Below the pieces are notes generated by a model. That model saw only the letters and a list, made by a program, of their open reading frames with translations. It made no database searches and was not told the DNA's origin. Below are positions 1,140-56,696 of a stretch of 64,000 bases of DNA, in pieces. This stretch comes from Bacteroidota bacterium (lineage in GTDB: Bacteria > Bacteroidota > Ignavibacteria > UBA10030 > BY39), in assembly GCA_030682385.1 (NCBI GenBank), contig JAUXOG010000104.1, positions 24,023 to 88,022 of the forward strand. Direction: 5' to 3'. Made by a program: the position numbers and the translations under genes. Every line of letters starts with the position of its first letter. Positions within the stretch are counted from its first letter, which is position 1.

Positions 1140-2155
1140 ATATGAAGGAAATACTTAAAAAAGTTTTAGAGGGACGGGATTTAGATTCCAAGGATGCCTC
1201 CGAAGTAATGAACTCTATAATGACAGGTTCGGCAACTGAATCTCAAATCGGTGCTTTTCTCGCAGCAGAAAAAATAAAAGGCGAGACAGTTGAAGAGCTA
1301 ACAGCTTTCGCGAAAGTTATGCGCGAAAAATCAGTAAAAATAAATTTGGCGGATAAAAATGCAATTGATATGTGCGGAACTGGCGGCGACGGACGAGGAA
1401 CATTTAATATTTCGACCGTAGCTTCATTTGTTGCTGCCGGAGCCGGCGTTACAGTTGCCAAGCACGGAAATAAATCTGTTTCGAGTAGCTGCGGCAGCGC
1501 CGATTTATTGAAAGAACTTGGCGTATATATTTCGATTGAACCTTTCAAAGTCGAAAAATGTATTAACGAAATCGGTATTGGTTTTATGTTCGCACCGATT
1601 TTTCACCCTGCGATGAAGTTAGTCAGTAAACCTCGATCCGAATTAGGAGTTAAAACTTTTTTTAACATTTTGGGCCCGCTAACTAATCCCGCAGAAGTTA
1701 AATACCAGATAATAGGTGCATACAATCTCGACGTTGCCAAAAAAATGATAGAAGTATTGATGCGGTTAGGCACGAAGAAATCTGCCGTCTTACATTCTTC
1801 GGATGGATTAGATGAAATATCCTTGAGCGGCAAAACATTCGTTTTTGAAATTGCTAAAGACGAAGACTTAAAATCGTTTGAAATTCACCCGAAAGATTTT
1901 GGACTTGAACTTTGCGACATTTCCGATTTAGCAGGTGGAACGCCGGAACAGAATGCGAACATGTGTCTTGAAATTCTAAATAATAGAAAAAGCCCGAAGC
2001 GCGATATAGTTTTACTGAATGCTGCTTATGCGATTTACATAAGTGGAAAAGCCGAAACGCCACGCGTTGGATTTCAAATGGCTGTCGATTCACTCGAAAA
2101 CGGAAGTGCTCTAAAAAAATTAAATCAATTAATCGAGTTCACAAAAAGTATATGA
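1136..2155 (+). CDS. trpD: Anthranilate phosphoribosyltransferase.
   Basis: GTGGDGRGTFNISTVASFVAAGAGVTVAKHGN motif. ATGA overlap with the neighbouring genes. Confidence 0.9.
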   Translation: MNMKEILKKVLEGRDLDSKDASEVMNSIMTGSATESQIGAFLAAEKIKGETVEELTAFAKVMREKSVKINLADKNAIDMCGTGGDGRGTFNISTVASFVAAGAGVTVAKHGNKSVSSSCGSADLLKELGVYISIEPFKVEKCINEIGIGFMFAPIFHPAMKLVSKPRSELGVKTFFNILGPLTNPAEVKYQIIGAYNLDVAKKMIEVLMRLGTKKSAVLHSSDGLDEISLSGKTFVFEIAKDEDLKSFEIHPKDFGLELCDISDLAGGTPEQNANMCLEILNNRKSPKRDIVLLNAAYAIYISGKAETPRVGFQMAVDSLENGSALKKLNQLIEFTKSI

Positions 2156-22997: not shown

Positions 22998-24380
22998 ATG
23001 TCTGTCTTAATTAAAAACGGTCGTGTTGTTACTGCTTCGGATGATTTTCTTGCCGATGTATTCATCCAGAACGAGAAGATTACGAAAGTCGCTGAGAATA
23101 TTTCTCTTGCGACTACAACAGTAATAGACGCAGCCAATAAACTTGTTATCCCTGGCGGTATAGATGTTCACACACACATTGATATGCCTTATGGCGATAT
23201 AAAATCGACGGACGATTTTGAAACCGGAACTATCGCCGCTGCCTTCGGAGGAACAACGACGATCATAGATTTCGCGGTTCAATCGAAAGGACAATCGCTT
23301 TTTGATGCTTTGAATATCTGGAAGCAGAAAGCCGATGGCAAAGCTGTTATCGATTATGGCTTTCACATAATTATAACAGATGCGAACGAGAAATATCTCA
23401 GTGAACTTGATAAAGTTGTTAACGAAGGTGTTACAAGTTTTAAATTGTTCACAGCATATCCCGGCAGATTAATGCTAAACGATTCAGATATTTTCAGAGT
23501 GATGCAACAAGCAAAGCAAAACGGTGCCCTGATAATGATGCACGCTGAGAACGGTTACGTAATTGATAAGTTAATTCAACAGACGCTTGCTGAAGGAAAG
23601 ACCGAACCAATCTATCATGCTTTAACACGTCCGTCTGCGCTTGAGGGCGAAGCAACGAACAGAACCATTGCTCTTGCCAAAGTTGCCGATGTGCCGGTTT
23701 ATATCGTGCACGTTACTTGCAACGAAGCGATTGATGCTATCAAGCAGGCACGAATGCAAGGACAAAAAGTATTCGGCGAAACTTGTCCGCACTACTTGCT
23801 GTTGAGTGAAGATGATTTGAGAAGACCAAACTTTGAAGGTGCGAAGTATGTTCTTTCGCCGCCGCTGCGAGAAAAAAAACATCAGCAAACCCTGTGGGAT
23901 TCGCTAAATGATAATGTTCTTCAAACAATCGCAACCGACCACTGTCCTTTTAACTTCAGACAACACAAAGAGTTAGGGCGGTATGATTTTACCAAAATAC
24001 CGAACGGTGCACCTGGAATCGAGAACAGACTTCATCTCAGTTACGAGTTTGGAGTTAATCAAAAGCGTTTTTCTTTAAACCGGTGGGTCGAATTAGTATC
24101 AACCAACCCTGCAAAGATATTCGGAATGTATCCGCAGAAAGGCGAGATTGCGGCCGGCTGCGATGCCGATATTGTTATATGGAATCCTAACACCGCACAC
24201 ACCATCTCAGCACAAACTCATCACATGCGTGTCGATTATAATATGTTTGAAGGTTTTAAAGTTACAGGAAATGCTGAAACAGTTATTGCACGTGGCGAAG
24301 TAATCGTTGAGAAAAATAAATTTCTAAGTAAGCCGGGTCGCGGTAAGTTTATTAAACGTAATCTTTTCATTAAGAAATAA
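22998..24380 (+). CDS. Dihydropyrimidinase/D-hydantoinase (cyclic amidohydrolase).
   Basis: IPGGIDVHTHIDMPYG metal-binding motif, and the 460 aa DHPase family pattern. Confidence 0.85.
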   Translation: MSVLIKNGRVVTASDDFLADVFIQNEKITKVAENISLATTTVIDAANKLVIPGGIDVHTHIDMPYGDIKSTDDFETGTIAAAFGGTTTIIDFAVQSKGQSLFDALNIWKQKADGKAVIDYGFHIIITDANEKYLSELDKVVNEGVTSFKLFTAYPGRLMLNDSDIFRVMQQAKQNGALIMMHAENGYVIDKLIQQTLAEGKTEPIYHALTRPSALEGEATNRTIALAKVADVPVYIVHVTCNEAIDAIKQARMQGQKVFGETCPHYLLLSEDDLRRPNFEGAKYVLSPPLREKKHQQTLWDSLNDNVLQTIATDHCPFNFRQHKELGRYDFTKIPNGAPGIENRLHLSYEFGVNQKRFSLNRWVELVSTNPAKIFGMYPQKGEIAAGCDADIVIWNPNTAHTISAQTHHMRVDYNMFEGFKVTGNAETVIARGEVIVEKNKFLSKPGRGKFIKRNLFIKK

Positions 24381-24578
24381 TTCAAAATATTTTATGAAAA
24401 AGAAAATGTAAATCATATTATTTTACCACAAAGTATTTACCCTTTGAGAGCGTTGTGCATCCTTGGTGTCCTCTGTGTTTAAATATTATTCTAATTTGAT
24501 CAAACAATAAAAATCTTTCGCCGAAGGCGAATCCGCCTCTGGCGGAAAAATCCCAAATCATAAATCATAAATCTTATT

Positions 24579-25766
24579 ATGTCTCTACCATTATCTAAAA
24601 TTCGTGTTCTTGATTTCACAAGAATCTTAAGCGGTCCTTATTGCACAATGAAGTTAGGCGATATGGGGGCTGAAATTATAAAAATAGAAGCGCGCGGTTC
24701 GGGCGACGATACCCGCTACTGGGCTCCGCCTTATGTCGGAGAGGAGAGCGTTTACTTTTTGAGTGTCAACCGAAATAAACAAAGTATTACACTCGATTTG
24801 AAATCCAAAGAAGGCAAAGAAATCATCAAGAAGTTGATACGCAAGAGCGATATAGTTGTCGAGAACTTCCGTGCGGGTGTGATGGACAAATTGGGTTTCG
24901 ATTATAAATCTGTAAAAAAAATTAATCCTAAAATAGTTTATTGCTCTATTTCTGGTTACGGACAGACAAGTGAACAAAGTCATCAGCCGAGTTTTGATTT
25001 AGTAGTGCAAGGAGAATCGGGGTTTATGGATATCACCGGATTTCCGGATGCGAGTCCGACTAAAGCCGGAGTTTCACTCGCGGATATAGCAGCAGGTCAT
25101 GCAGCGTTTGAAGGAATTCTTCTCGCATTGTTCCATCGTCAGAAAACCGGAAAAGGGCAATACATTGACATCAGTTTGTTGGATAGTTTGATCTCGATGT
25201 TTACGTTTCAATCACAGATTGCATTATCAACAGCAACAACACCGAAACGCAAAGGCAATCTACATCCGACAATCACTCCTTACGAAACTTTCGAGACAAA
25301 GGAGGGTTACATAAACATCGCAGCGGGTAACGAGGGACTGTGGAAAAATTTCTGTAAAGCAATAAACCGGCTTGACCTGTTGAAGATTGAAAAGTTTATT
25401 GTTAATCCCAAGAGAGTTGAGAATCGAGTAGAGTTACAAAAGGAATTGATACCTGTTCTGAAGCAAAAGACAAGCGCCGAATGGTTCAAAATTTTTGCTG
25501 AGCACGATGTGCCCGTTGGAAAAATTAATACGGTGAAGGAAGCTTTAAACTTACCAACCGTTCTCGGCAGAGAAATGGTTATCGAGTTAAACCACTCAAC
25601 AATTGGTAAAATGAAGACCGTTGGTAATCCCATAAAGCTTAGCAGCGTAAAGAGTTACAATTATAAACCTGCCCCCACAATAGGTGAACATAGTGATAAA
25701 ATATTAAAACAACTTGGTTATTCAAAGAAAGAAATTGAAAAATTAAAATCACAGAAAGTTGTTTAG
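24579..25766 (+). CDS. Family III CoA-transferase (CaiB/BaiF/Frc-like).
   Basis: IRVLDFTRILSGPYCTMKLGDMGAEIIKIE N-terminus typical of CoA_transf_3. Confidence 0.85.
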   Translation: MSLPLSKIRVLDFTRILSGPYCTMKLGDMGAEIIKIEARGSGDDTRYWAPPYVGEESVYFLSVNRNKQSITLDLKSKEGKEIIKKLIRKSDIVVENFRAGVMDKLGFDYKSVKKINPKIVYCSISGYGQTSEQSHQPSFDLVVQGESGFMDITGFPDASPTKAGVSLADIAAGHAAFEGILLALFHRQKTGKGQYIDISLLDSLISMFTFQSQIALSTATTPKRKGNLHPTITPYETFETKEGYINIAAGNEGLWKNFCKAINRLDLLKIEKFIVNPKRVENRVELQKELIPVLKQKTSAEWFKIFAEHDVPVGKINTVKEALNLPTVLGREMVIELNHSTIGKMKTVGNPIKLSSVKSYNYKPAPTIGEHSDKILKQLGYSKKEIEKLKSQKVV

Positions 25767-25855
25767 AAAACCAAATCAAAGACTATCTTCAGTTGTTTTA
25801 AATACCGAAGTTTTGTAATTTTACACACATTTTTAATAAAATTTAAGGTTCAAAA

Positions 25856-26686
25856 TTGCTAAATAGTTTTTCATATTATAAACCGAAATCCGAAATTGAA
25901 ATTATTGAAACATTAAAATCTTTTGGAGACGATGCTAAAATATTAGCCGGCGGAACCGATTTGTTAGTTTATATGAAGCAGCAAATTGCAGGTCCGAAAG
26001 TATTGGTCGATATTAAAGGCGTTCCTGATTTTTCTAAAATTGACGTCGACAGTGGAGGCAATCTCATTATCGGAGCCGCTGTAACCTGCAACGACGTAGT
26101 AGAGAATCAATATATCCGAAATCATTTTCCGGTATTAGCGACTGCTGCAAAAACAATCGGGTCTTATCAAATTCGCAACCGTGCAACAGTCGTCGGAAAT
26201 ATTTGTAATGCTTCACCCGCGGCTGATATGGCGGGAGCGTTCCTCGTTTTGGATGCTGTTGTGATTATTGCAACAGAAAAAGGGAATCGTGAAATCCCAA
26301 TTAAACATTTTTTTGTTGGTGTTAAAAAAACATCGCTGCAACAAAATGAATTCGTAAAAGCAATTAAAGTTCCTGCTGATTACAAAGACGCCGAAGCAAG
26401 TTATTTAAAAGCAAGTCGCATTAAAGGACACGACCTCGGCACTTGCAACGCAGCTATGAGTCGCAGCAAAAACGGAAAAATTAAAATTGCAATTGGCTCG
26501 TGCAACATTACGCCGGTTTTACTTCCAGATTTCGACAGCAATAATATTGATTTGGCAAACATATTAACGACAGCGATGAATAGTATAAAACCGATTGATG
26601 ATTTAAGAGGTTCAAAAGAATACCGAAAACATCTCGTCCAAGTTTTTATCAAACGATTATTAAACGGAAAGGGACATAGCCATTAA
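25856..26686 (+). CDS. Molybdopterin dehydrogenase FAD-binding subunit (CoxM/XdhB-like). TTG start.
   Basis: YYKPKS...LAGGTDLLVYMK FAD_binding_5 pattern. Confidence 0.8.
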   Translation: MLNSFSYYKPKSEIEIIETLKSFGDDAKILAGGTDLLVYMKQQIAGPKVLVDIKGVPDFSKIDVDSGGNLIIGAAVTCNDVVENQYIRNHFPVLATAAKTIGSYQIRNRATVVGNICNASPAADMAGAFLVLDAVVIIATEKGNREIPIKHFFVGVKKTSLQQNEFVKAIKVPADYKDAEASYLKASRIKGHDLGTCNAAMSRSKNGKIKIAIGSCNITPVLLPDFDSNNIDLANILTTAMNSIKPIDDLRGSKEYRKHLVQVFIKRLLNGKGHSH

Positions 26687-27161
26687 GACGATAGCAGTAA
26701 CAATCAACGATAGAAGATACAGTAAAAGTGTTTCAGAAAATAGAACATTATTAGATTTTCTCCGCGAGGATTTGTATTTATTAGGTGTAAAAGAAGGATG
26801 CGGAGAAGGCGAGTGCGGCGCTTGTACAGTTTTAATGAATGGAAAACCGGTAAACTCCTGTTTGGTTTTAGCAGTTGAAGCCGACGGAACAATGATTCGC
26901 ACAATCGAAGGCGAATCGAAGAATGGAAAATTGAATCCGCTTCAGGAATCTTTTAAAAAACATCACGCAACACAATGCGGATTTTGCACTCCAGGTGTTA
27001 TAATGTCTGCAACATCACTTTTAGAGCGGAATCAAAACCCGGATGAAGAAGAAATCAAAGAAGCGATTGAAGGAAATTTTTGCAGATGCACCGGTTACCG
27101 GCAAATTATTGATGCGATAGCTGAAGCCGCTACGCTTTTAGAGAGCGAGGTAAAAAAATGA
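26682..27161 (+). CDS. [2Fe-2S] small subunit of the molybdenum hydroxylase (CoxS-like). The N-terminus begins at a non-canonical ATT/ATA codon.
   Basis: IKTIAVTINDRRY...LLDFLREDLYLLGVKEGCGEGECGACTV...CGFCTPG. The conserved N-terminus lies about 30 codons upstream of the first canonical start (TTG at 26772). There is no ATG/GTG/TTG in frame between the upstream stop and 26772. Confidence 0.7.
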   Translation: MKTIAVTINDRRYSKSVSENRTLLDFLREDLYLLGVKEGCGEGECGACTVLMNGKPVNSCLVLAVEADGTMIRTIEGESKNGKLNPLQESFKKHHATQCGFCTPGVIMSATSLLERNQNPDEEEIKEAIEGNFCRCTGYRQIIDAIAEAATLLESEVKK

Positions 27162-29527
27162 ACACTAAAAAAGAATATAAATATATCGGGAAAAGTGTTC
27201 CACGGATTGATGCGGATGAAAAAGTAACCGGACAAGCACGTTATGTTTCTGATATTTCGATGCCCGGAATGCTTCACGCAAAAATGTTAACATCGCCGGT
27301 GGCTCACGCAAAAATAAAAAAGATTGATACATCGAAAGCAAAAGCGTTGGATGGCGTGGTTGCAGTTCTTACCGGTGAAGAGTTAGACTATCATGTGGGA
27401 TTGTATCTTGTAGATAAACGGATTCTTGCCCGCGACAAAGTCCGTTATCAAGGCGAACCTGTAGCTGCGGTTGCAGCCGAAACTTTAGAAATAGCCGAAA
27501 AAGCTATCAAGTTAATCGAAGTGGAATATGAATTGCTCAAACCACTCCTTGATGTTGAAGAATCGTTTAATGAAAAAGAAAATTTAATTCATCCTGATTT
27601 AGGAAATTACAGTCATTTAAAAGCTGCCTTCTTTCCGCAGCCCGGAACTAACATCTGCCACGTTTCAAAAATCCGGAAGGGCGATATTGATAAAGGTTTT
27701 GCAGAAGCCGATGTGATTGTAGAACGTGAATACAATAATCCTTCGGTGCAGCACGTTCCTATGGAAACTCACGGCGCAATTGTTCAGTGGGGTGTTAGTG
27801 ATAAAGTAATGATTTATACAAGTGCACAATCGCCGTTCACCGTGCGAAATCTTTTTTGTTATACTTTTAAATTGCCGCATCAAAAAGTTCGTGTAGTAGT
27901 TCCCTATGTAGGCGGCGGATTTGGAGGGAAAGCCGGAATCCATTTCGAGCCGTTAGTCGGATGTCTTTCGCGCGCGGCGGGGGGCAGACCTGTAAAGTTG
28001 ATTGCCACAAGAGAAGAAGAATACAATACACTTCCGTGTCGCTGCGGACTTAAATTTAAAATCAAAACCGGTTTGAAGAAGAACGGAAAAATTACAGCGC
28101 AGAAATTAGTCCTGCTTTGGAGCGCCGGCGCTTATGCTGATTACGCTGTGAATGTTACGCGGGCTTCGGGATATTCTGCAGGCGGACCCTACTATTACGA
28201 AAATCTTTGCACTGATTCATACACCGTTTATACAAATCAGGTTTTCGGAACTGCATATCGTGGATTCGGACACGTCGAATTATTCTGGGGATTAGAGCGT
28301 CACATGGATTTGTGTGCCGATAAAATTGGAATAGATCCCTATGAATTCAAAAAAATAAATTTACTCAAACCCGACAACACAACTGCGACAGGAGAAATTG
28401 TAACCGATTCATCGGGCAGTGTACGCAAATGTTTAGATGCTGTAATAAAAGAAATTAATTGGAGCGGTCATAAAACTAACGAAGAAAAAATAACGGAAAT
28501 TAAATCGGGAAAAGTTCGCGGCAAAGGATTTGCCGTTTTGCACAAGGCGCCCGCTATGCCGACCAATACATCGAGTTCATGTGTAATTAAGATGAATGAG
28601 AATGGTTCCGTAATTTTGAATGTCTCTGCAACTGATTACGGCAATGGTACTTACACGCCATTAACTCAAATTATTGCTGAAGAGATGGATATTCCGTTAT
28701 CGAAAATACATGTAGCATTTGAAACCGATACCGACCGTGATCCATACGATTGGCAGACAGTCGCATCGAGATTTATGCCGATGGGTGGCAGGGCTGTCAT
28801 TAATGCTTGTAATGAATTGAAGAAAAAGATGTCTGAAGTTGCGGCAAAAGTTTTTGAGTGTTCGCAGGATGATTTTATTTTTGAAGATGAAAAAATAATT
28901 CTTAAAAACAATCCAGAAAAATTTATTCCGTACGAAAAATTAGCAACCGGATATGTCTTCCCGAATGGAAATGCAATTGGCGGTCCGCTGATTGGAGTTG
29001 GCGTTTACATTGCTGAAGGTTTGACGAATCTTGATAAAGAAACCGGGCAGGGTTTGCCGGCTTTCAATTGGACTTTCGGCGCTCACGGTGTTGAAGTTGA
29101 AGTCGATGTTGAAACAGGCGAGTTCACTGTTTTGAAAATAGCTTCTGCGCTGGATGTTGGAAAGGTTATGAACGAAGCATCGTTGAAAGGACAACTTATC
29201 GGCGGTGTGGTTCAAGGTTTAGGTACTGCAATTTGCGAGAGATACGTTTACAGCAGCGACGGACGACTCTTAAACAAATCTTTTACCGACAATAAAATAC
29301 CGACTGCGAAAGATATTCCAAATGTTTTTGTTCCGATTTTTATTGAAACTCCGCACGATAAAGGAGCTTACGGTTCACGGGGAGCCGCTGAACATCCGAT
29401 GATTTCTGTCGCACCCGCAATCGGAAATGCTTTGAAAGATGCTTTAGGAATTGAGTTGACTGAGATGCCTATTCGTTTCGAGGATGTTTGGTCGGCAATG
29501 CAAAAAGAGAAGACTCTTGTTGGTTAA
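27158..29527 (+). CDS. Molybdopterin-binding large subunit of a xanthine-dehydrogenase/aldehyde-oxidase-family hydroxylase.
   Basis: 789 aa with Ald_Xan_dh_C/C2 patterns (for example GGGFGGK and the AYRGFG region). ATGA overlap with the FeS subunit. Confidence 0.85.
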   Translation: MNTKKEYKYIGKSVPRIDADEKVTGQARYVSDISMPGMLHAKMLTSPVAHAKIKKIDTSKAKALDGVVAVLTGEELDYHVGLYLVDKRILARDKVRYQGEPVAAVAAETLEIAEKAIKLIEVEYELLKPLLDVEESFNEKENLIHPDLGNYSHLKAAFFPQPGTNICHVSKIRKGDIDKGFAEADVIVEREYNNPSVQHVPMETHGAIVQWGVSDKVMIYTSAQSPFTVRNLFCYTFKLPHQKVRVVVPYVGGGFGGKAGIHFEPLVGCLSRAAGGRPVKLIATREEEYNTLPCRCGLKFKIKTGLKKNGKITAQKLVLLWSAGAYADYAVNVTRASGYSAGGPYYYENLCTDSYTVYTNQVFGTAYRGFGHVELFWGLERHMDLCADKIGIDPYEFKKINLLKPDNTTATGEIVTDSSGSVRKCLDAVIKEINWSGHKTNEEKITEIKSGKVRGKGFAVLHKAPAMPTNTSSSCVIKMNENGSVILNVSATDYGNGTYTPLTQIIAEEMDIPLSKIHVAFETDTDRDPYDWQTVASRFMPMGGRAVINACNELKKKMSEVAAKVFECSQDDFIFEDEKIILKNNPEKFIPYEKLATGYVFPNGNAIGGPLIGVGVYIAEGLTNLDKETGQGLPAFNWTFGAHGVEVEVDVETGEFTVLKIASALDVGKVMNEASLKGQLIGGVVQGLGTAICERYVYSSDGRLLNKSFTDNKIPTAKDIPNVFVPIFIETPHDKGAYGSRGAAEHPMISVAPAIGNALKDALGIELTEMPIRFEDVWSAMQKEKTLVG

Positions 29528-30398
29528 TAATCAAATAGAAATAGCTTCATATTTAAATTCAATTCTTTCTAAAACCAATAATAGATTCTTTAACATACAT
29601 TCTATTTTTAATAAAGCTGTAAATTTTTATGACGGAGAAATGTTATTAACTTTTACTTCACCCGATGTGCAGTTATCTCCAACGAATATTGTTTTCAACG
29701 AGAGTCATTTGTTTAATTCTATTCATAATATATCACAAAATTCTGTCTGTGAATTAAACTATCCGATATTGAGTTTCAATTCTAGATATGGCGAATTTAG
29801 TGTTTCGCTTGAAACATGCGGTGTTGTGAAGACTGAAATCGAGACATATCATAAACTTTCGGAAACAGATATTGAACTATTCAAGTCGAATGTTTTCAAA
29901 GTAATCGATAATCGGAACAGCATACTAAATATTTATCATCATCATCAAACAGAAGATGCTTTGATGGAGAAGTTAAAAATTATCACACTTTCGATTCAGG
30001 AGAGTGTAACTGCAAACGAAGTAGATTATTTCAGAAGAGGAGTGAAAAAACTTTTAGGACTTGGGGCAGGATTGACACCTGCAGGCGATGATTTTGTGTA
30101 TGGACTTTTAGCCGTGTGGAAAACATTCGGTGGCGGCGGAATATTTAAAAAGGAATTAGAAACATTATTAGTTGAAAATAAAAATGAAACCGGAATAATC
30201 AGTTACAATATGTTGAATGCACTTATTAAAAATCATATCTACCTTCCTCTTAAAAATTTGTTTCGACAAATCAATAGCGGGAAGGAATACACGAGGGAAC
30301 TATCGGAGATTGCATCGTTCGGTGCAACTTCAGGGGCAGATATGATTGCAGGTGTATTGTTCGGATTAGAAAATCAGGAATATAAAATTGAAGCATAA
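29520..30398 (+). CDS. DUF2877-family protein (AllH/YlbF-like component of oxamate carbamoyltransferase). The start is uncertain (TTG 29520, ATG 29484 or ATG 29640).
   Basis: GLGAGLTPAGDDFVYGLL motif characteristic of DUF2877. Gene order DUF2877 - FdrA - DUF1116, as in E. coli ylbF-fdrA-ylbE. Confidence 0.6.
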   Translation: MVNNQIEIASYLNSILSKTNNRFFNIHSIFNKAVNFYDGEMLLTFTSPDVQLSPTNIVFNESHLFNSIHNISQNSVCELNYPILSFNSRYGEFSVSLETCGVVKTEIETYHKLSETDIELFKSNVFKVIDNRNSILNIYHHHQTEDALMEKLKIITLSIQESVTANEVDYFRRGVKKLLGLGAGLTPAGDDFVYGLLAVWKTFGGGGIFKKELETLLVENKNETGIISYNMLNALIKNHIYLPLKNLFRQINSGKEYTRELSEIASFGATSGADMIAGVLFGLENQEYKIEA

Positions 30399-31953
30399 AA
30401 TTATAATCAAAAAAAATTCTTACTACGATTCAGTCAGCTTGATGCAATTGTCGGATAAAGCAAAATTGTTGCCCAACGTTCTTGATGCTGTTATATCGAT
30501 GGGCACAGAGACAAATATAAATTTTTTAAAAGATATAGATTTGTTCGATGGTCATTTGGATACAGCGGGACCGAACGATTTAGTGATAGCAATTCGGGTT
30601 GAAGACGAACGAGCACTTGAGAGTTCATCGAAGTTAATCGAAAATTTATTAAACCAAAAAGAATCTTCTGAACAAAAAGCGTCTGAAGATAAACCGGTTT
30701 CGTTTGATTATACGCTGCGGAAAAATGCGGATGCGAATATGGTGCTGGTCTCAATTCCGGGCGAATATGCTTATTACGAGTCGAAAAAGGGACTTATTGC
30801 AGATAAACACGTGATGATTTTCAGCGATAATGTAAGCGTTGAACAGGAAATTCAGCTAAAAGAGATGGCGGTTTCTAAAGGTTTGCTGCTGATGGGCCCT
30901 GATTGCGGAACGGCGATAATTAATGGAGTGCCGCTGGCTTTTGCAAATGTTATTCCGCAAGGTCAGATTGGAATCGTCGGAGCTTCCGGAACCGGTAGTC
31001 AACAAGTTAGCAGTTTGATTGCAAGGATGGGTTCGGGGATAACTCAACTTATAGGAACAGGCGGCAGAGATTTATCGGAAGCTGTCGGCGGGAAAATGAT
31101 GCTGCTTGGAATTGATGCGTTGAATGAAGATCCAAAAACAAAAGTAATCGTGTTGATTTCGAAACCGCCCGCAGAAAGTGTAATGGAAAAAGTTTTAGCA
31201 TCAGCATCGAAGTGCAGTAAGCCGGTTGTTGTTTGCTTTTTAGGTGGAAGAAAAGATGTAATTGAAAAATATAAATTAATCGCAGCCGATAATCTTGAAG
31301 AGGCAGCATTAAAAGCTGTGCAGCTTGCACCGGGTAAGACTATTGGAGGTTACTCTTCTGAAAACGAATTGTCCGCCACAGGCGGATTAGCCGAAATTGA
31401 AAAAGCGAAAATGAATTCAAACCAAAAATACATCCGTGGTTTGTATGCGGGCGGAACGCTTTGCGATGAATCCATAATTTATCTGCGTCAAATATTCGGA
31501 ACAATTTATTCCAATACGACAATCGACGCTGGGACGAAACTTACCGACAGCCGTATTTCAATGAGGGATACAATTATCGACCTCGGTGATGAGGAATTTA
31601 CATAAGGCAAATGTCACCCGATGTTTGAGCCGTCGTACAGACAATTGCGTTTGCTGAACGAAGCAAAAGATTCTGAAGTTGCTGTTATTTTGCTCGATAT
31701 AGTTTTGGGATACGGTTCGCACGAAGACCCCGCCGGCGCAATGCTCGAAAGTATAAAACAAGCTAAAGCAGAGTTTGAAAAACGTGGCGGCTATCTTTCG
31801 GTGATTGCTTCCGTTTGCGGAACTGAAGAAGACCCGCAAGTTTTATCCGCACAAGAAGCAAAACTTAAACAAGTTGGCGTAATCTGTATGCCGAGCAATT
31901 ATCAGGCAGTAAAGTTAGCGGCAAAGATCAAGGAAATTGTTTTAAAAAAATAA
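30388..31953 (+). CDS. fdrA: FdrA (AllF)-like CoA-binding/succinyl-CoA-synthetase-alpha-like protein, interrupted by an in-frame TAA at 31603-31605. It is annotated as one gene made of two in-frame ORFs (30388-31605 and 31621-31953).
   Basis: N-terminus IIKKNSYYDSVSLMQLS...VISMGT...GPNDLVIAIRVE resembles E. coli FdrA. The downstream ORF continues FdrA-like sequence (GKCHPMFEP...LLDIVLGYGSHEDPAGA...SVCGTEEDPQ) in the same frame, with no RBS of its own. Confidence 0.65.
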
Positions 31954-31965
31954 TGATTTTATATC

Positions 31966-32070
31966 ATCCCTAAAGGGATTATAAATATTTTGTCTCTAAA
32001 GAGACTGTCCCAAAGGGACAGAATATTTATAAAAAGATGGAATAGAAAACAAAAAAGTCCCTTTAGGGAC
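31966..32070 (+). repeat. Array of four short stem-loops (ATCCC-TAAA-GGGAT, GTCTC-TAAA-GAGAC, TGTCCC-AAA-GGGACA, GTCCC-TTTA-GGGAC). The middle two are enclosed by a 9 bp ATAAATATT / AATATTTAT outer stem.
   Basis: Read directly in the 157 bp spacer between the fdrA-like gene and the DUF1116 gene. Confidence 0.5.
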
Positions 32071-32110
32071 GGAATAATAATCGTGATAAAATAAATTAAC
32101 AATCAAAATA

Positions 32111-33511
32111 ATGTTACAAAAAATCGAAGAATTATTCTCAAATAAACTATCGGTAATAAATTTGGGAATCGAGTCATTCTCTGCCGACTTGCAATCGCAA
32201 AATGTAAAATCGATACATGTTAGATGGAAGCCGCCGGCATCTGGAAATAAAGAGTTGCTAAATCTTTTATCTGCACTTTATACTGATGGAGTAGAATCCG
32301 CAAACCGGAAGGTTCTTGAAATCATCGCTAACGGTCATCCGAAACTTATCGGTTTAGGGATTGCTAAAGAAGTTATTCCGAATTTTACCGAGAAAACAAT
32401 TTTACACGCCGGTCCACCGATAACTTGGGAAAATATGTGCGGACCAATGCGGGGCGCCGTAATTGGCGGGTTGATATACGAAGGTCTTGCCAAAGATGTT
32501 GAAGCCGCTGAAAAAATTGTATCAACTGAAATTACTTTTTCACCCTGCCATCACTTCCATACAGTCGGACCGATGGCTGGAATTGTTACCGCCTCGATGC
32601 CGGTTTGGATTGTGAAGAATGATGCCTATGGGAACTTAGCTTATGCAACAATGAACGAAGGACTTGGAAAAGTTCTGAGGTTCGGGGCTTACGGTACGGA
32701 AGTTATACAACGATTAGACTGGATGCGCGATGAATTGTATCCAATCTTAAAACAGTCGTTAGACATAAAAGGTGAAATCGATCTGCGAATTTTAATTTCA
32801 CAAGCACTTCAAATGGGGGATGAATGTCATAACCGGAATAAAGCTTTCACATCACTTTTCCTTCGTGAAATCGCACCGGCAATCGCACGGACTGATTTTT
32901 CAAACGAACAAAAGGCAAAAGTTCTTGAGTTCATACATTCAAACGACCATTTCGGTTTAAACTTATCGATGCCTGCGAGCAAATCTATTATGGAAGCGGC
33001 TGAGGGGATCGAAAATTCTACGATCGTTACAACGATGGCGCGTAATGGAACTGAATTCGGAATTCGTGTTGCAGGATTAAAAGGCAAATGGTTTACAGCA
33101 AAATCGCCGAAAGTGCGAGGACTATATTTCCCCGGTTACACAGAAAACGATGCAGCACTCGACCTTGGCGATTCGGTGATTACCGAGACGTCAGGTATCG
33201 GCGGGTTCGCTATGGCTTGTGCACCGGCGATAGTCGGCTTCGTCGGAGGCAAAGCTTCTGATGCTCTCGACTATTCGCAACAAATGTATCAAATAACTTT
33301 ATCGGAGAGTAAACATTTTCAAATTCCAGCTTTGAATTTTCGGGGAACAGCTACGGGCATCGATATACGCAAAGTAATTGAAACCGGAATCTTACCGATA
33401 ATTAACACAGGCATTGCACACAAAAATGCAGGCGTCGGGCAAGTGGGCGCAGGACTTGTAAACCCCCCGATGGAATGTTTTGAAAAAGCATTACAAAATT
33501 TTAAAAAATAA
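32111..33511 (+). CDS. DUF1116-family protein (AllG/YlbE-like component of oxamate carbamoyltransferase).
   Basis: 466 aa with the characteristic motifs (for example the HAGPPI...GPMRGAVIGGL...SPCHHF region). Follows the FdrA-like gene. Confidence 0.6.
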   Translation: MLQKIEELFSNKLSVINLGIESFSADLQSQNVKSIHVRWKPPASGNKELLNLLSALYTDGVESANRKVLEIIANGHPKLIGLGIAKEVIPNFTEKTILHAGPPITWENMCGPMRGAVIGGLIYEGLAKDVEAAEKIVSTEITFSPCHHFHTVGPMAGIVTASMPVWIVKNDAYGNLAYATMNEGLGKVLRFGAYGTEVIQRLDWMRDELYPILKQSLDIKGEIDLRILISQALQMGDECHNRNKAFTSLFLREIAPAIARTDFSNEQKAKVLEFIHSNDHFGLNLSMPASKSIMEAAEGIENSTIVTTMARNGTEFGIRVAGLKGKWFTAKSPKVRGLYFPGYTENDAALDLGDSVITETSGIGGFAMACAPAIVGFVGGKASDALDYSQQMYQITLSESKHFQIPALNFRGTATGIDIRKVIETGILPIINTGIAHKNAGVGQVGAGLVNPPMECFEKALQNFKK

Positions 33512-33540
33512 AAAACCTAAAACGAACTAAAGGAAACAAA

Positions 33541-34320
33541 ATGAAAATAATTGATTTAACACAACGACTATCAGTAATGACACCGGCTTGGCCCACTTAT
33601 GAACCGTTGAAAGTGTATTTCTTTAAACGACTTTCTTCTAACGGTGCGAACGGACAAATCATCAGTACGAGCAATCACATCGGAACGCACATGGATGGCG
33701 AAATCCATTTCCACACCGCCGGAAGAACAATCGGTAATCAGCCGATTGAAGATTTTGTCGGTGCCGGCGTTGTCGTTGACATCTCCGACATAATGGGAGA
33801 TTACGATATTTACACATCGAAGATGCTGATGGAGCGTGCTGATATTCGCAAAGGCGACATCTTGATTATTAATACCGGCTACCATAAATATGCGTGGGAT
33901 CAACCTGAAGCTAACGAGATACGATATTTTTGCAAACATCCCGGTCCCGCAAGTGAGTTTGTTGAATGGTGCGAAGAGATGCAATTCAAATGGATTGGTG
34001 TTGACTGTGGAAGCGCCGACCATCCGATGAATACGATTATCAGAAAATGGTCGGAAGATTTATACGGATTGGCTACGGAAGCTTCGGAACACATGAAGAA
34101 AAAATATGGTAAGACGCTTGAAGAACTTTTTCCGAAAAAAGATTATCAGCAAATGCACTTTAAACTTTTCCCGAAGAAAATAATTCATGCAGAAAATATT
34201 GGCGGCGATATTAACCTATTATCCAACCAAAGAACTCACATCGGTGCGTTTCCGTGGCGGGCGATTGAACTCGAATCCTGCATCTGCCGGATTGTTGCGT
34301 TCCCCGATATAAAAGAATAA
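33541..34320 (+). CDS. Cyclase-family metal-dependent hydrolase (kynurenine-formamidase-like, PF04199).
   Basis: SNHIGTHMDGEIHF (HxGTHxD) cyclase motif. Confidence 0.7.
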   Translation: MKIIDLTQRLSVMTPAWPTYEPLKVYFFKRLSSNGANGQIISTSNHIGTHMDGEIHFHTAGRTIGNQPIEDFVGAGVVVDISDIMGDYDIYTSKMLMERADIRKGDILIINTGYHKYAWDQPEANEIRYFCKHPGPASEFVEWCEEMQFKWIGVDCGSADHPMNTIIRKWSEDLYGLATEASEHMKKKYGKTLEELFPKKDYQQMHFKLFPKKIIHAENIGGDINLLSNQRTHIGAFPWRAIELESCICRIVAFPDIKE

Positions 34321-34325
34321 TATCA

Positions 34326-35648
34326 TTGGTCGAAAATTTATCCACAAAAAATTTTGCCGTTGAACCTGAAGCCAATTCTCTAAAACGAATTGCTGATAAA
34401 CTTCGAAGCGGTGAGCTATCTTTAAAATCATACATCGATCAGATTCAAAAAAGATTTGAACTTGTAGAACCGCACATCAAAGCTTTTCTTGAAGAGCCAA
34501 ATCGTTTCGAAAGATTGCACCGGGAAGCCGAACAACTTGAAACGGAATTTGATAAACAAAGGGAGCTCCCGCTGCTTTTAGAAATTCCCGTTGGCATTAA
34601 AGATTTATTTCATGTTGAAGGTTTCGAGACGAAAGCCGGAAGTAATTTACCGTCAGATATTTTTAAATCGCCGGAAGGACAAGCTGTAAAAGCGCTCAAG
34701 TCTGCCGGTGCTTTAGTCTTAGGAAAAACTGTAACAACTGAGTTTGCATATTTTGCACCGGGACCAACCCGCAATCCGCATAATCTCAATCATACACCCG
34801 GGGGTTCATCGAGCGGCTCTGCTGCTGCTGTTGCATCAGGACTCACTCCGCTGGCGTTGGGAACGCAGACAATCGGATCGGTAATCAGGCCGGCAGCTTT
34901 TTGCGGAGTTGTTGGCTTCAAACCAAGCCAAAACCGCATTGCTACCGACGGAGTTGTGCCGTTTTCGCCAACTGTTGACCAAATTGGCTTCTTTACTTCT
35001 GATGTCGAAAGCGGTGAATTTGCTGCTTCGGTTTTGTGTGAAAAGTGGATAACTGTGGGTAAAGTTGATAAGATTAAGTTGGGGATACCTGAGGGGGCAT
35101 ATCTCGAAGAAACTTCCCCGGAAACATTAACACATTTTTGGGCAGTCGTAAAGCGATTGGAAGATACAGGTTTAGAGATTGTGCGAATGGAAGTGATGAA
35201 AAATTTTGAGGAGATAGTTCATATTCACAACAAATTGATAGCTGCTGAAGCGGCAATTGTTCATCAAAATTGGTTTGAAAAATATTCGCATTTGTATAAT
35301 CCGAAAACTGTCGAGTTGATATTGAAAGGACAAAGTGTAAAAGAGAATGAATTAAGAGATTGTAAAAACAATCGCGCTCATTTTCGTTCGGAATTAATTG
35401 AGATAATGAATCGCAACAATATAACGGCTTTCATAACACCTTCGACAGTTGGTCATGCACCTTTCGGATTGGATTCAACAGGTGATCCGATTATGAATTT
35501 GCCGTGGACATTTGCAGGATTGCCTGCGATAAATTTACCGGTTGGCAAGTTTGCAAACGGACTTCCATTCGGTTTGCAGGTTGTGGGAAATTACTGGAAA
35601 GATGAGGAATTGTTGAAAATTGCATCTGTAATTGAAACTAAAAAATAA
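34326..35648 (+). CDS. Amidase-signature family amidohydrolase. TTG start.
   Basis: GGSSSGSAAAVASG amidase-signature motif and K...S...S triad context. Confidence 0.8.
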   Translation: MVENLSTKNFAVEPEANSLKRIADKLRSGELSLKSYIDQIQKRFELVEPHIKAFLEEPNRFERLHREAEQLETEFDKQRELPLLLEIPVGIKDLFHVEGFETKAGSNLPSDIFKSPEGQAVKALKSAGALVLGKTVTTEFAYFAPGPTRNPHNLNHTPGGSSSGSAAAVASGLTPLALGTQTIGSVIRPAAFCGVVGFKPSQNRIATDGVVPFSPTVDQIGFFTSDVESGEFAASVLCEKWITVGKVDKIKLGIPEGAYLEETSPETLTHFWAVVKRLEDTGLEIVRMEVMKNFEEIVHIHNKLIAAEAAIVHQNWFEKYSHLYNPKTVELILKGQSVKENELRDCKNNRAHFRSELIEIMNRNNITAFITPSTVGHAPFGLDSTGDPIMNLPWTFAGLPAINLPVGKFANGLPFGLQVVGNYWKDEELLKIASVIETKK

Positions 35649-35753
35649 GCTACTTATAAATTTCGTGAGTACCCAATATTCTTTGTACTCCTGACTTCCG
35701 CACCTTTTTTTAAAAAACTAAAAATCTTTCTATATAACATACTACAAACATTT

Positions 35754-35896
35754 GAGTCGCCTACGGCGACCTACGGACTCGATTCTAATAGATGTCTGTA
35801 GAATATGAAAAATAAATAATACCGACTCCATTAGGAGTCGAATGTTTGTAGAAAGAAACAAAAAAAAATACCGACTCCAGCGGAGTCGAATGTTTT
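35754..35896. repeat. Three small hairpins sharing a GAGTC/GACTC core. Two are copies of a roughly 30 nt unit, AATACCGACTCC-(loop)-GGAGTCGAATGTTT, at 35819-35848 and 35868-35896.
   Basis: Read directly in the 440 bp spacer downstream of the amidase gene. REP-like or terminator-like. Confidence 0.45.
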
Positions 35897-36089
35897 ATTG
35901 AAACCCCGCAGTTGGTTTAATTTTTTTCAAGTGCCAACAACGCTTCATATTTTTTGCGAGGGAGTATCACTAAATCATCTTCTTTGATATATTTCTTGGG
36001 AATCGTTATAAGTGTCATTTTGCAATTCATAAATAAAACAATTATCTTGAAAACGAATTAATTGAATTTCAAACCAAATTTTTTCCCTT

Positions 36090-36722
36090 ATGAAAACAAA
36101 AATCTTTGCAGCGGTAGCTGGTAATATTGGATCGGGCAAATCGTCGTTAACACGACTTCTTGCAAAAGAATACGAATGGGATGCCTATTATGAATCGGTT
36201 GATGATAATCCGTATTTGAGCGATTTCTATGGTGATATGGGACGATGGTCGTTTAATTTACAAGTTTATTTTTTATCCAAACGTTTCCGCGACCATAAAT
36301 CTATTGTTGAAGGGGATAAATCGGTAATACAGGACAGATCGATTTACGAGGACGCCGAGATATTTGCAAAAAATCTGAACAAGATAGGGAAGATGGACGA
36401 CCGCGATTATAAAAATTACGTCGAGCTATATAAAGTTATGATGGAGTATCTTCAACCGCCCGGTTTACTGATTTATCTTGAAGCAAAAATAGAAACTTTA
36501 CTTGAGCAAATCGCAAAACGAGGGCGCGAGTACGAACAGAGCATCCCTCGCGCGTACTTAGAACAATTAGATGAGAACTACAAAGAATGGATCGGTAACT
36601 ACAAACTCGGTCCTCTGCTGGTGATCCCATCGGACGAAGTGGATTTCGTGCACGAGAAAGGCGACTTTAACAGAGTATTGATGTTGATACAAGCTAAGCT
36701 GATGGATTTAGGATATATTTAA
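36090..36722 (+). CDS. Deoxynucleoside kinase (dAK/dGK/dCK family).
   Basis: AVAGNIGSGKSSL P-loop and the dNK family pattern (ERS, DR motifs). Confidence 0.85.
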   Translation: MKTKIFAAVAGNIGSGKSSLTRLLAKEYEWDAYYESVDDNPYLSDFYGDMGRWSFNLQVYFLSKRFRDHKSIVEGDKSVIQDRSIYEDAEIFAKNLNKIGKMDDRDYKNYVELYKVMMEYLQPPGLLIYLEAKIETLLEQIAKRGREYEQSIPRAYLEQLDENYKEWIGNYKLGPLLVIPSDEVDFVHEKGDFNRVLMLIQAKLMDLGYI

Positions 36723-54932: not shown

Positions 54933-55772
54933 CTAATGTTGCAAAACCAATGTTGGTGGCTGTGCTTTATCAAACTTTAATTTCGGTTGTATTTCGATTA
55001 GGCGAACTCGTTCTCTCGCAATTTTACAATACTCGTGGCTGATGTCAATACCAATGTAATTTCTATGCATTTCACAGGCTACTCTTGGCGTTGTTCCGCT
55101 GCCACACATTGGGTCAAGAACAACGTCACCGGAATTTGTCCAAGAGAAAATATGGTCTCTCACAAGTTCGCAAGGAAATGGTGCTGGGTGTCCTTTCGCT
55201 TCTTGGTCTTCTTGTCTTTTGCCGACGACATATTCCCAAATATTGCCTTTAATTTTTTTATCTTTTACTGGCTTTGCTAATTTCTCTCTTGTCTGCTCGT
55301 TCTTTGAATAGTTTTTGTAGGTTGTGCCGTTGAGTTCTAAACCTGCGTGCATACAGTCAACTAAGATTGGGTTATGTGTCTTAACTACGCCCTTGCTGAA
55401 TACGAACATATACTCAAACTCATTGGTGTATCTCTTGCGATAGATTTGAGGGATTGGATTTTTCTTTCTGAAAATCATTGTGTCGTGTAGATTGAACCCA
55501 ATTTCCTTAAAATACATAGCTTGCTTAAAACTTGTTCCAGTTTCCGTAGCGTCAATTGTTGCATCAGCAACAACCCAAACCACCACACCGCCTAGTTTTG
55601 TAATGCGGAATAATTCTTTTACTATGTCTTCAAATGGGAAAATATAGCCCTTATAGTTTCTTAAATCATCGTAAGGTGGTGAGGTAACAGTCAAGTCAAT
55701 TACGTCATCTTGAAATTTTTTCATTACTTCAACGCAATTACCTTCAATGATTTTGTTTATATATTTTTCCAT
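54933..55772 (-). CDS. Beta-class DNA amino-methyltransferase (N6-adenine or N4-cytosine), the partner of the adjacent restriction enzyme.
   Basis: LTVTSPPYDD (motif IV) after DPMCGSGTT (motif I), in the circularly permuted beta order. Confidence 0.8.
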   Translation of the reverse strand: MEKYINKIIEGNCVEVMKKFQDDVIDLTVTSPPYDDLRNYKGYIFPFEDIVKELFRITKLGGVVVWVVADATIDATETGTSFKQAMYFKEIGFNLHDTMIFRKKNPIPQIYRKRYTNEFEYMFVFSKGVVKTHNPILVDCMHAGLELNGTTYKNYSKNEQTREKLAKPVKDKKIKGNIWEYVVGKRQEDQEAKGHPAPFPCELVRDHIFSWTNSGDVVLDPMCGSGTTPRVACEMHRNYIGIDISHEYCKIARERVRLIEIQPKLKFDKAQPPTLVLQH

Positions 55773-55781
55773 ATTTTTAAG

Positions 55782-56696
55782 CTATATTATTGAGAATAAA
55801 CCATTGTCTGAAATCGCTTTAATTGTTTTAATCTTGCTTTCAATTTTGTGAACTTTAATAAGTTCTTTCAGAGCTTCTTGATGGCTCATTCGCATAATCT
55901 TTTCCCGTTCTTGTGCTAAAAAAGTCAGGGCTTCTTCCTTTGCAATGTTTATTGATTCTGTAGCTGCTTGTTTTTCAATACCCCAGAGATTTTCGATTTT
56001 TTTTGAAAATGTCAGCATAGCCTTGTTTACTGCTAACCAATAGTCGTTAGCGTTTTTAGAAGGATTGATGGCGGGAACAGTTTGAAAAATTGTTTTTAGC
56101 AGTTGTTGGGCTTTTGCTTTGCTTTCAACTTCTGAAAATGCCAAGAGTAAAGCGAGGTGTGAGTATGTAAAAACACAAACATTATAAGTAGTCGCTTGCT
56201 GATAGATTTGGCTTGAAGTGTTTGGAAGTTGATAAATTGGGCATACAACCATTGCATAGGGTTTGCCTCGTTTCCAACCGCCCATTGCCTGAACTTTAAA
56301 GTCCTTCTGGTTTTTAGCTGTTCTGCTAAGTCGGAAAGATTTAGCGTCTGCAACAAGACTGTAATCTTTAGCAAATGCTTCAACGTCTGCTGCATCGGCT
56401 CTTTCTTTCAGCACCAAACTTTTAAGCCCTAATGCTTTATAGGATAAAGAAAGTAAAGCGTCTGTGTATTTAGAGTAAAGTTTTTCTTCGCTTGTGTCGT
56501 GCCCATAAGATTCTGGTATATTACCGCAAAGTCTTAAATGGTCAATAAGTGCGGCTATTCCCGATTTTTTTATTTCTGCTTCTAATTCTTTTTCTAAACG
56601 GTCAGAGTCGTTACTGAAATTTCCGCTTAGTTTACGGATTTCGTCAACCCAATAAGCTCGCCTTTTTCCTGCTTTGTCCGATATAATATTTTTCAT
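55782..56696 (-). CDS. HindIII-family type II restriction endonuclease.
   Basis: LVADAKSFRLSRTAKNQKDFKV block, and the following Y/PxxQ...SQI region, closely resemble R.HindIII as I recall it. 304 aa (R.HindIII is about 300 aa). Confidence 0.6.
   Translation of the reverse strand: MKNIISDKAGKRRAYWVDEIRKLSGNFSNDSDRLEKELEAEIKKSGIAALIDHLRLCGNIPESYGHDTSEEKLYSKYTDALLSLSYKALGLKSLVLKERADAADVEAFAKDYSLVADAKSFRLSRTAKNQKDFKVQAMGGWKRGKPYAMVVCPIYQLPNTSSQIYQQATTYNVCVFTYSHLALLLAFSEVESKAKAQQLLKTIFQTVPAINPSKNANDYWLAVNKAMLTFSKKIENLWGIEKQAATESINIAKEEALTFLAQEREKIMRMSHQEALKELIKVHKIESKIKTIKAISDNGLFSII

Follow-up and report, generated by a model that had tools for sequence, protein, structure and literature searches.

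In Escherichia coli, the proteins AllF, AllG, and AllH together constitute oxamic transcarbamylase, and the deletion of allF alone abolishes oxamate formation (PMC11326118). The 64-kb window analyzed herein (the whole stretch of DNA), from an uncultured Ignavibacteria-type bacterium, carries a gene of the same family, allF/fdrA, that resembles E. coli AllF (FdrA; PDB 3DMY) in that it aligns with the motif DLGDD.(F/Y)T.G(R/K)(P/A)HPMIDP and has allH- and allG-like genes on its two sides. It differs in that its frame is broken by a TAA codon and three invariant residues of the motif are altered. The genetic setting also deviates from the E. coli allantoin regulon; specifically, an XDH-like Mo-hydroxylase, a cyclase, an amidase, a CoA-transferase, and an amidohydrolase are encoded here, and no carbamate kinase was found near the cluster.

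Beyond the enzyme itself, the locus can be compared with known kinds of in-frame stop. It shares with programmed recoding a stop that is followed by an intact, conserved downstream frame, but TAA serves for neither Sec nor Pyl, relatives lack the stop, and no cis-element or tRNA was found in the window. With nonsense pseudogenes and MAG assembly errors, it shares a single private internal stop where the orthologues are intact, as well as a strain-mixed metagenome in which contigs of an independent assembly break at that site. A simple point mutation, however, would not be accompanied by five further private transversions within 37 nt, and the resulting patch also differs from the usual assembly error, an indel or a chimera. 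The disruption of allF/fdrA is private and non-conserved, and it is ordinary in kind.

An in-frame stop within allF/fdrA

The TAA divides a 521-codon FdrA/AllF gene (30388-31953; Table 1), and the local reading is GAT GAG GAA TTT ACA TAA GGC AAA TGT CAC CCG ATG TTT GAG CCG. The original prediction held that the ORFs on either side of this codon, 30388-31605 and 31621-31953, share one reading frame, and this was confirmed: the five codons between them encode GKCHP, the second ORF (110 codons) starts at an ATG that corresponds to Met412, the M of the invariant HPM motif, and the natural terminator of fdrA is the TAA at 31951-31953. The accompanying statement that no ribosome-binding site precedes the second ORF was fair, with merely a weak AAGG lying 13-16 nt upstream of ATG 31621. 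At the other end of the gene, the TTG start of fdrA overlaps the stop codon of allH, and the N-terminus read from that TTG (LKHKIIIKK) is identical in the window, in one of the nearest relatives (L001), and in the 521-aa FdrA of a related MAG (P0001). The latter protein is colinear with the read-through product of the window at 89% identity and 100% coverage.

When the two parts are joined, the 521-aa product matches NF004760 (“acyl-CoA synthetase FdrA”) across residues 6-514 in one stretch, with 505.7 bits, which is above the NCBIfam cutoff of 433 bits. Pfam places a CoA_binding domain (PF02629) at residues 192-284, followed by a Ligase_CoA domain (PF00549) at residues 352-513, and the alignment with 3DMY (3dmy_A) spans residues 104-513 (E = 7.1e-79); the C-domain profile matches only 3DMY in the PDB. 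The equation of the HPM histidine with the phosphohistidine of succinyl-CoA synthetase was considered and rejected, as the similarity to the alpha subunit of that enzyme covers only residues ~104-292. Against this background of overall family membership, the FdrA motif D-x-G-x-D-x-F-T-x-G-x-x-H-P-M-I is broken in the window at E402, at the stop at 406, at C409, and at F413. As written, allF/fdrA is a disrupted member of its family.

All six frames were scanned for stops flanked by 90 or more open codons in each direction, and three further sites emerged in the window. Two of these separate unrelated neighbors (a Glu/Leu dehydrogenase from NusB, and a HindIII endonuclease from a methylase), while the third (1603-1605, minus strand, 93/119 open codons) presumably belongs to a spurious antisense frame. 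The TAA at 31603 is therefore the sole stop found within a recognized gene. Further, TAA is the commonest terminator in the window, ending 32 of 60 non-nested ORFs of at least 100 aa, among them allH, allF, allG, the cyclase gene, and the amidase gene. The frequent use of TAA as a terminator agrees with the earlier view that no global code change is involved.

Table 1. Coordinates of the allF/fdrA locus in the window, the base changes around its internal stop, and the matching contigs of an independent assembly.
Feature	Position	Strand	Details
allH-like gene, directly upstream of fdrA	29484..30398	+	PF11392; listed ORF 304 aa
5' part of allF/fdrA	30388..31605	+	TTG start, codons 1-405, then TAA
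In-frame TAA in place of Lys406	31603..31605	+	AAA or AAG in nearest relatives
3' remainder of allF/fdrA, same frame	31606..31953	+	codons 407-521
Intact allG, downstream of fdrA	32111..33511	+	PF06545; 466 aa
Patch of six window-private substitutions, all transversions	31593..31629 (37 nt)	+	from alignments with relatives
Patch change C>G	31593		D402E
Patch change A>T	31603		K406stop
Patch changes G>T and C>G (GC>TG)	31612 and 31613		A409C
Patch change A>T	31624		I413F
Patch change C>G	31629		D414E
Logan contig L033	23373-26439		100% identical
Logan contig L005	26417-30908		identical to 30861, then five differences at 30862-30897
Logan contig L004	31632-35914		100% identical
Logan contig L030	35980-41406		100% identical

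Relatives, selection, and translational readings of the stop

The comparison of orthologues at the aligned position, which had been proposed together with the original prediction, gave a sense codon in 179/179 homologues in a protein alignment, where the residues aligned with the stop are V, R, K, Q, L, and others, with neither a gap nor a protein end at that position. The same was true of 23/23 fetched relative loci that span the site (counted from 21 GTDB hits plus L001, L002, L003, and L027-L029), including two Carnobacterium loci with a variant motif. The relatives compared at the locus level include the Bacteroidota MAG GCA_030017895.1 (L001), GCA_964532125.1 (L002), a locus from Logan run SRR27457922 (L003), and a set made up of the Ignavibacteriae MAG GCA_947085405.1 and Logan contigs of two further runs (L006/L027, L007, L028, and L029, of which L028 spans fdrA and L029 has only its 3' part). 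Lys is encoded by AAA or AAG at codon 406 in L001, L002, L003, L006/L027, and L007, the nearest of these. The sequence of the nearest relatives at the motif is DLGDDEFTKGKAHPMID, and their protein motif, DLGDDEFTKGKAHPMIDP, has become DLGDEEFT-stop-GKCHPMFEP in the window. Among the best 120 full-length hits, all are unbroken at 500-677 aa, and 119/120 fall within 500-549 aa. As judged from these alignments, the stop is private to the window sequence. The earlier description of GKCHPMFEP as a continuation of conserved FdrA-like sequence was half right, given that C409 and F413 occur in 0/179 homologues; E414 is present in 30/179.

These comparisons bear directly on a functional split gene, in which translation would end at the TAA and resume at ATG 31621, 15 nt farther on, with polypeptides 1-405 and 412-521 reassembling. 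Such an arrangement would draw on the in-frame ATG and the intact frame behind it, and short stand-alone C-domain FdrA-like proteins do exist in databases. However, those proteins begin near residue 345, at the domain border, and include the motif in full; none has the HPM methionine as its start, and no split at this position was found among the orthologues examined. Moreover, G407-P411 would be lost, including His410 and Pro411 (each 179/179 among the homologues, as is Met412), the flanking residues are altered too, and the re-initiation codon has only the weak AAGG before it. We therefore regard a functional split as very unlikely.

The original prediction offered three alternatives, of which a very recent nonsense mutation and a sequencing or assembly error stand as the sole serious candidates, whereas programmed readthrough or recoding is unsupported. 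In the latter case, readthrough, a suppressor tRNA, or a reassigned TAA would yield the full-length protein, a scenario favored only by the intact downstream frame and by the position of the stop within a conserved motif. TAA is neither the Sec codon (TGA) nor the Pyl codon (TAG), the stop is conserved in no relative (0/179 proteins, 0/23 loci), and the same codon is the commonest terminator in the window. Further, invariant residues beside the stop are altered, which would be intolerable for a functional recoded protein. The 64-kb window contains no tRNA genes and no Rfam families at the gathering threshold, and the MFE of 31570-31700 is no better than that of shuffles (z = -1.2). Programmed stop-codon recoding at TAA 31603 is not supported, and we give it the smallest of probabilities.

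Selection on the gene was estimated as Nei-Gojobori dN/dS for the window versus L001/L002/L003. The values were 0.17-0.19 before the stop (fdrA codons 2-395) and 0.06-0.13 after it (codons 417-521), alongside 0.03-0.22 for allG, the Mo subunit, the cyclase, and the FAD subunit; the 110-codon downstream frame is intact, as originally claimed. When changes were polarized with L027 as the sister and L001-L003 as outgroups, the N:S ratio was 46:65 on the window lineage (40:65 without the patch described below) versus 70:141 on the sister lineage (P = 0.45), and no further stop or frameshift was found in fdrA. An old, established pseudogene was rejected on these grounds, namely, no relaxed selection, no other disruption, and constrained neighbors. 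Decay of the whole cluster was likewise rejected, as a cluster of substitutions in the amidase gene proved to be a misalignment around a private 13-aa deletion and the lineage N:S was not elevated. On this sequence evidence, the lesion and the changes around it would be either very recent on an evolutionary scale or not biological.

A patch of six private substitutions

A feature overlooked by the original prediction is that the TAA is one of six private changes in 37 nt, all of which are non-synonymous and five of which are C>G or A>T. L001, L002, L003, L007, L027, and L029 are mutually identical at all six sites. Across ~12.1 kb of aligned synteny, where a substitution was called private if the window differed and L001-L003 agreed, there are 202 window-private substitutions (124 transitions and 78 transversions), 196 of them outside the patch. 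At this density, 0.6 private changes are expected per 37 nt, and the probability of at least six is 3.8e-5 per 37-nt interval, or ~0.012 over the region. Six transversions out of six, relative to a background of 37%, has P = 0.0025. For the ancestral bases concerned, the local natural spectrum would yield three C>G together with two A>T with a probability of 4.5e-5, and uniform error would do so with a probability of 4e-3. The patch is the sole such cluster within DNA that is otherwise conserved among relatives; elsewhere, clustered private changes fall in variable DNA, include both transitions and transversions, or reflect misalignment around an indel.

The patch also strikes residues that the family holds nearly constant. 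Among the 179 homologues, position 402 is D in 178, position 409 is A or P in 178, and position 413 is I in 178. The window deviates at 3/106 columns of at least 95% conservation (T109, E402, and F413), and while T109 is common to 6 homologues, E402 and F413 are found in none, and both lie at most 7 codons from the stop. C409, in the A/P column, is likewise unshared and within 7 codons of the stop.

Several origins by rearrangement or templating were considered and rejected. Template switching or gene conversion would call for a donor, and no donor copy of the patch of at least 12 nt occurs anywhere in the 64-kb window, nor do the changes create or perfect any inverted or direct repeat within ±400 nt. 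A diversity-generating retroelement target does not fit either, as the window has no template copy of the patch and its changes are not restricted to adenines (the ancestral bases being C, A, G, C, A, and C). Finally, segment identities first hinted at a jump in affinity to L027 at the patch, as expected of a recombination or chimera breakpoint. This was rejected upon base-level alignment, in which the low left-hand identity to L027 is due to a hypervariable linker (31330-31400), with affinity rising gradually from ~31400.

An independent assembly of the same organism was available in the form of four Logan contigs of run SRR13727541, obtained via exact-protein look-ups, whose identity to the window is 100% across more than 17 kb in total (Table 1). 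None of the retrieved contigs covers 30909-31631, the patch included, and L004 starts 3 nt past the last changed base; the chance of a contig end so near is ~0.003. At 30862-30897 (L005 4446-4481), the window encodes EM, an L001-like allele, whereas L005 encodes NL, an L003-like allele. At least two haplotypes are present in SRR13727541, identical over 4.4 kb (26417-30861) and diverging inside fdrA, which indicates co-occurring mosaic strains. Given that a patch at normal depth in all reads would let a k-mer assembly pass, the patch is either poorly supported or one of two alleles, and its allele may sit in Logan contig(s) of 30909-31631 beyond those retrieved. Exact look-ups in the protein collection recorded neither of the two fdrA ORF fragments nor the predicted partial product of 30832-31602, and 300-aa and 117-aa sub-queries found no fragment of at least 90% identity. 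Exact pattern searches of GTDB species genomes and JGI metagenomes matched neither patch allele, with the window itself also unmatched there, and a literature search on the run and assembly accessions found nothing.

The TAA is an ordinary lesion and not a signal; our preferred reading of it, held with modest confidence, is a local read, consensus, or assembly error. Specifically, the six-change patch would most likely never have been present in a cell, and would instead be a local error built into the metagenome-assembled contig at a point of divergence between two co-occurring strains, where each strain would be thinly covered by reads. On this reading, allF/fdrA would in truth be an unremarkable, intact gene: codon 406 would be AAA (Lys), the motif would be the normal DLGDDEFTKGKAHPMIDP, and the product would form one subunit of an AllFGH-type (oxamic-transcarbamylase-like) complex. 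With respect to a technical cause, an assembler could have bridged a low-coverage gap with a single read, or a two-color Illumina error burst with a fading red channel could have turned C into G and A into T, which would cover five of the six changes. In two-color Illumina chemistry, C is red, T is green, A is both, and G is dark, such that C>G and A>T are exactly the miscalls of a lost red signal; single-read paths across low-coverage gaps are rescued by some assemblers, for example, through the mercy k-mers of MEGAHIT.

An error is favored by the privacy, the clustering, and the transversion-only spectrum of the changes, by the fact that no retrieved independent contig crosses the site, and by invariant residues being struck at random rather than avoided while the rest of the gene and cluster is undamaged. 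Other considerations weigh against it. First, the G>T at 31612 is unlike a loss of red signal, and the fit assumes a two-color platform. Second, k-mers seen once are usually discarded unless rescued, such that an error normally needs at least two concordant reads, and read tails seldom give an error-rich stretch with correct sequence on both sides. Third, a true polymorphism, as a bubble in the assembly graph, would likewise break a contig at the patch.

The last of these points leads to the alternative of a real allele, very recent or still segregating, in which a single clustered multi-nucleotide event caused loss of function; we assign it a lower, though still considerable, probability. For example, a short tract of error-prone repair synthesis would have replaced six bases in 37 nt, converting Lys406 to a stop and damaging the invariant loop, and the strain carrying it would make a 405-aa AllF fragment and lose AllFGH-type activity, while a co-occurring strain would keep the intact allele. 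SOS/Pol V-type synthesis is biased toward transversions, and error-prone polymerases give clustered, transversion-rich mutations. In addition, the sequence as given carries the patch, a minority allele among the two co-occurring haplotypes could break the independent assembly at this point, and the unrelaxed selection downstream fits a very young lesion. Nevertheless, six changes in 37 nt with zero transitions are far from what the local natural spectrum would give, the search for a templating donor was negative (as a repeat within ±400 nt or a copy of at least 12 nt in the 64 kb), the patch allele has no independent record, and there is no sign of pathway loss, with all of the neighboring genes intact and constrained.

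If the allele is real, the stop after residue 405 would remove about two thirds of the Ligase_CoA domain, and both the invariance of the altered residues and the phenotype in E. coli, where an allF deletion abolishes oxamate formation, point to a loss of function with a clear phenotype (PMC11326118). A more specific form of this idea, which we put forward tentatively and consider rather unlikely, is that the six transversions arose together within 37 bp, as one “mutation shower” in a wild population of Ignavibacteria type, and knocked out the invariant HPM loop of AllF, with the intact allele surviving in a co-resident strain. If true, it would offer a natural snapshot of error-prone-polymerase-type clustered mutagenesis and of the loss of an AllFGH-type pathway under way. 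In a weaker variant of this idea, the two halves of AllF would still function by way of re-initiation.

The biological weight of the site is small, and its chief value lies in annotation. The proper label is allF/fdrA with an internal stop (possible assembly error or pseudogene allele), neither two genes nor a recoding candidate. For in-frame stops in MAGs more generally, a useful check is to look at the accompanying private changes, at the base-change spectrum, and for an independent assembly through the site. Were the patch real, it would be a modest curiosity regarding clustered mutagenesis and microdiversity in an uncharacterized cluster for the catabolism of N-compounds.

The gene cluster and its neighbors

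The disrupted gene sits in a cluster of 11 genes (22998-36722) that is conserved in several Ignavibacteria-type MAGs, in the order amidohydrolase, family-III CoA-transferase, XDH-like Mo hydroxylase (FAD, 2Fe-2S, and Mo subunits), AllH-like, AllF/FdrA, AllG, cyclase-family protein, amidase, and deoxynucleoside kinase. L001-L003, GCA_947085405.1, and the Logan contigs of two further runs share this gene order and have an unbroken fdrA, and the allH-allF-allG adjacency is kept in L001-L003 and L027-L029. The cluster probably serves the catabolism of an N-heterocycle or ureido compound by a route unlike the E. coli allantoin pathway. AllH is 292-293 aa in relatives and in Logan contig L005, implying a start near 29517, downstream of that of the listed ORF. 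At the N-terminus of AllG (32111-32280), residues 7-56 match NF004760 positions 505-554; thus, in this lineage AllG carries the ~50 residues that end E. coli FdrA, the segment having moved between subunits.

The spacer between allF and allG (31954-32110) contains four short GC-core hairpins, TCCCTAAAGGGA twice, GTCTCTAAAGAGAC, and GTCCCAAAGGGAC. This palindrome pattern is found four times there, where 0.09 are expected, and nowhere else in the window, and the spacer itself varies in length among relatives (181 nt in L002 and L003, 52 nt in L027, and 5 nt in L001). These features suggest that a small repeat or terminator-like element has been inserted.

Upstream of its Fer2 domain, the 2Fe-2S subunit of the XDH-like enzyme (26683-27161) lacks any ATG, GTG, or TTG. 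Conservation across the window and four related sequences (L001 6290-6774, L002, L003, and L005) extends over GGAAAGGGACATAGCC ATT AAG ACG ATA GCA GTA, which implies that the subunit would start at an ATT (26683) or an ATA (26692), overlapping the TAA of the FAD subunit (ATTAA). Gene callers place the start at the ATA (L001, 156 aa) or at an internal TTG (129 or 108 aa).

Farther downstream, the amidase (34326-35648) carries its private 13-aa deletion in a variable loop, together with a Glu for the Gly that precedes IPVGIKD in the aligned L001-L003. Both features are reproduced exactly in the independent contig L004, unlike the fdrA patch. Outside the cluster, on the minus strand at 54933-56696, a HindIII-type restriction endonuclease (PF09518, E = 8e-116) adjoins an N6/N4 DNA methylase in the same frame, with 9 nt between them.
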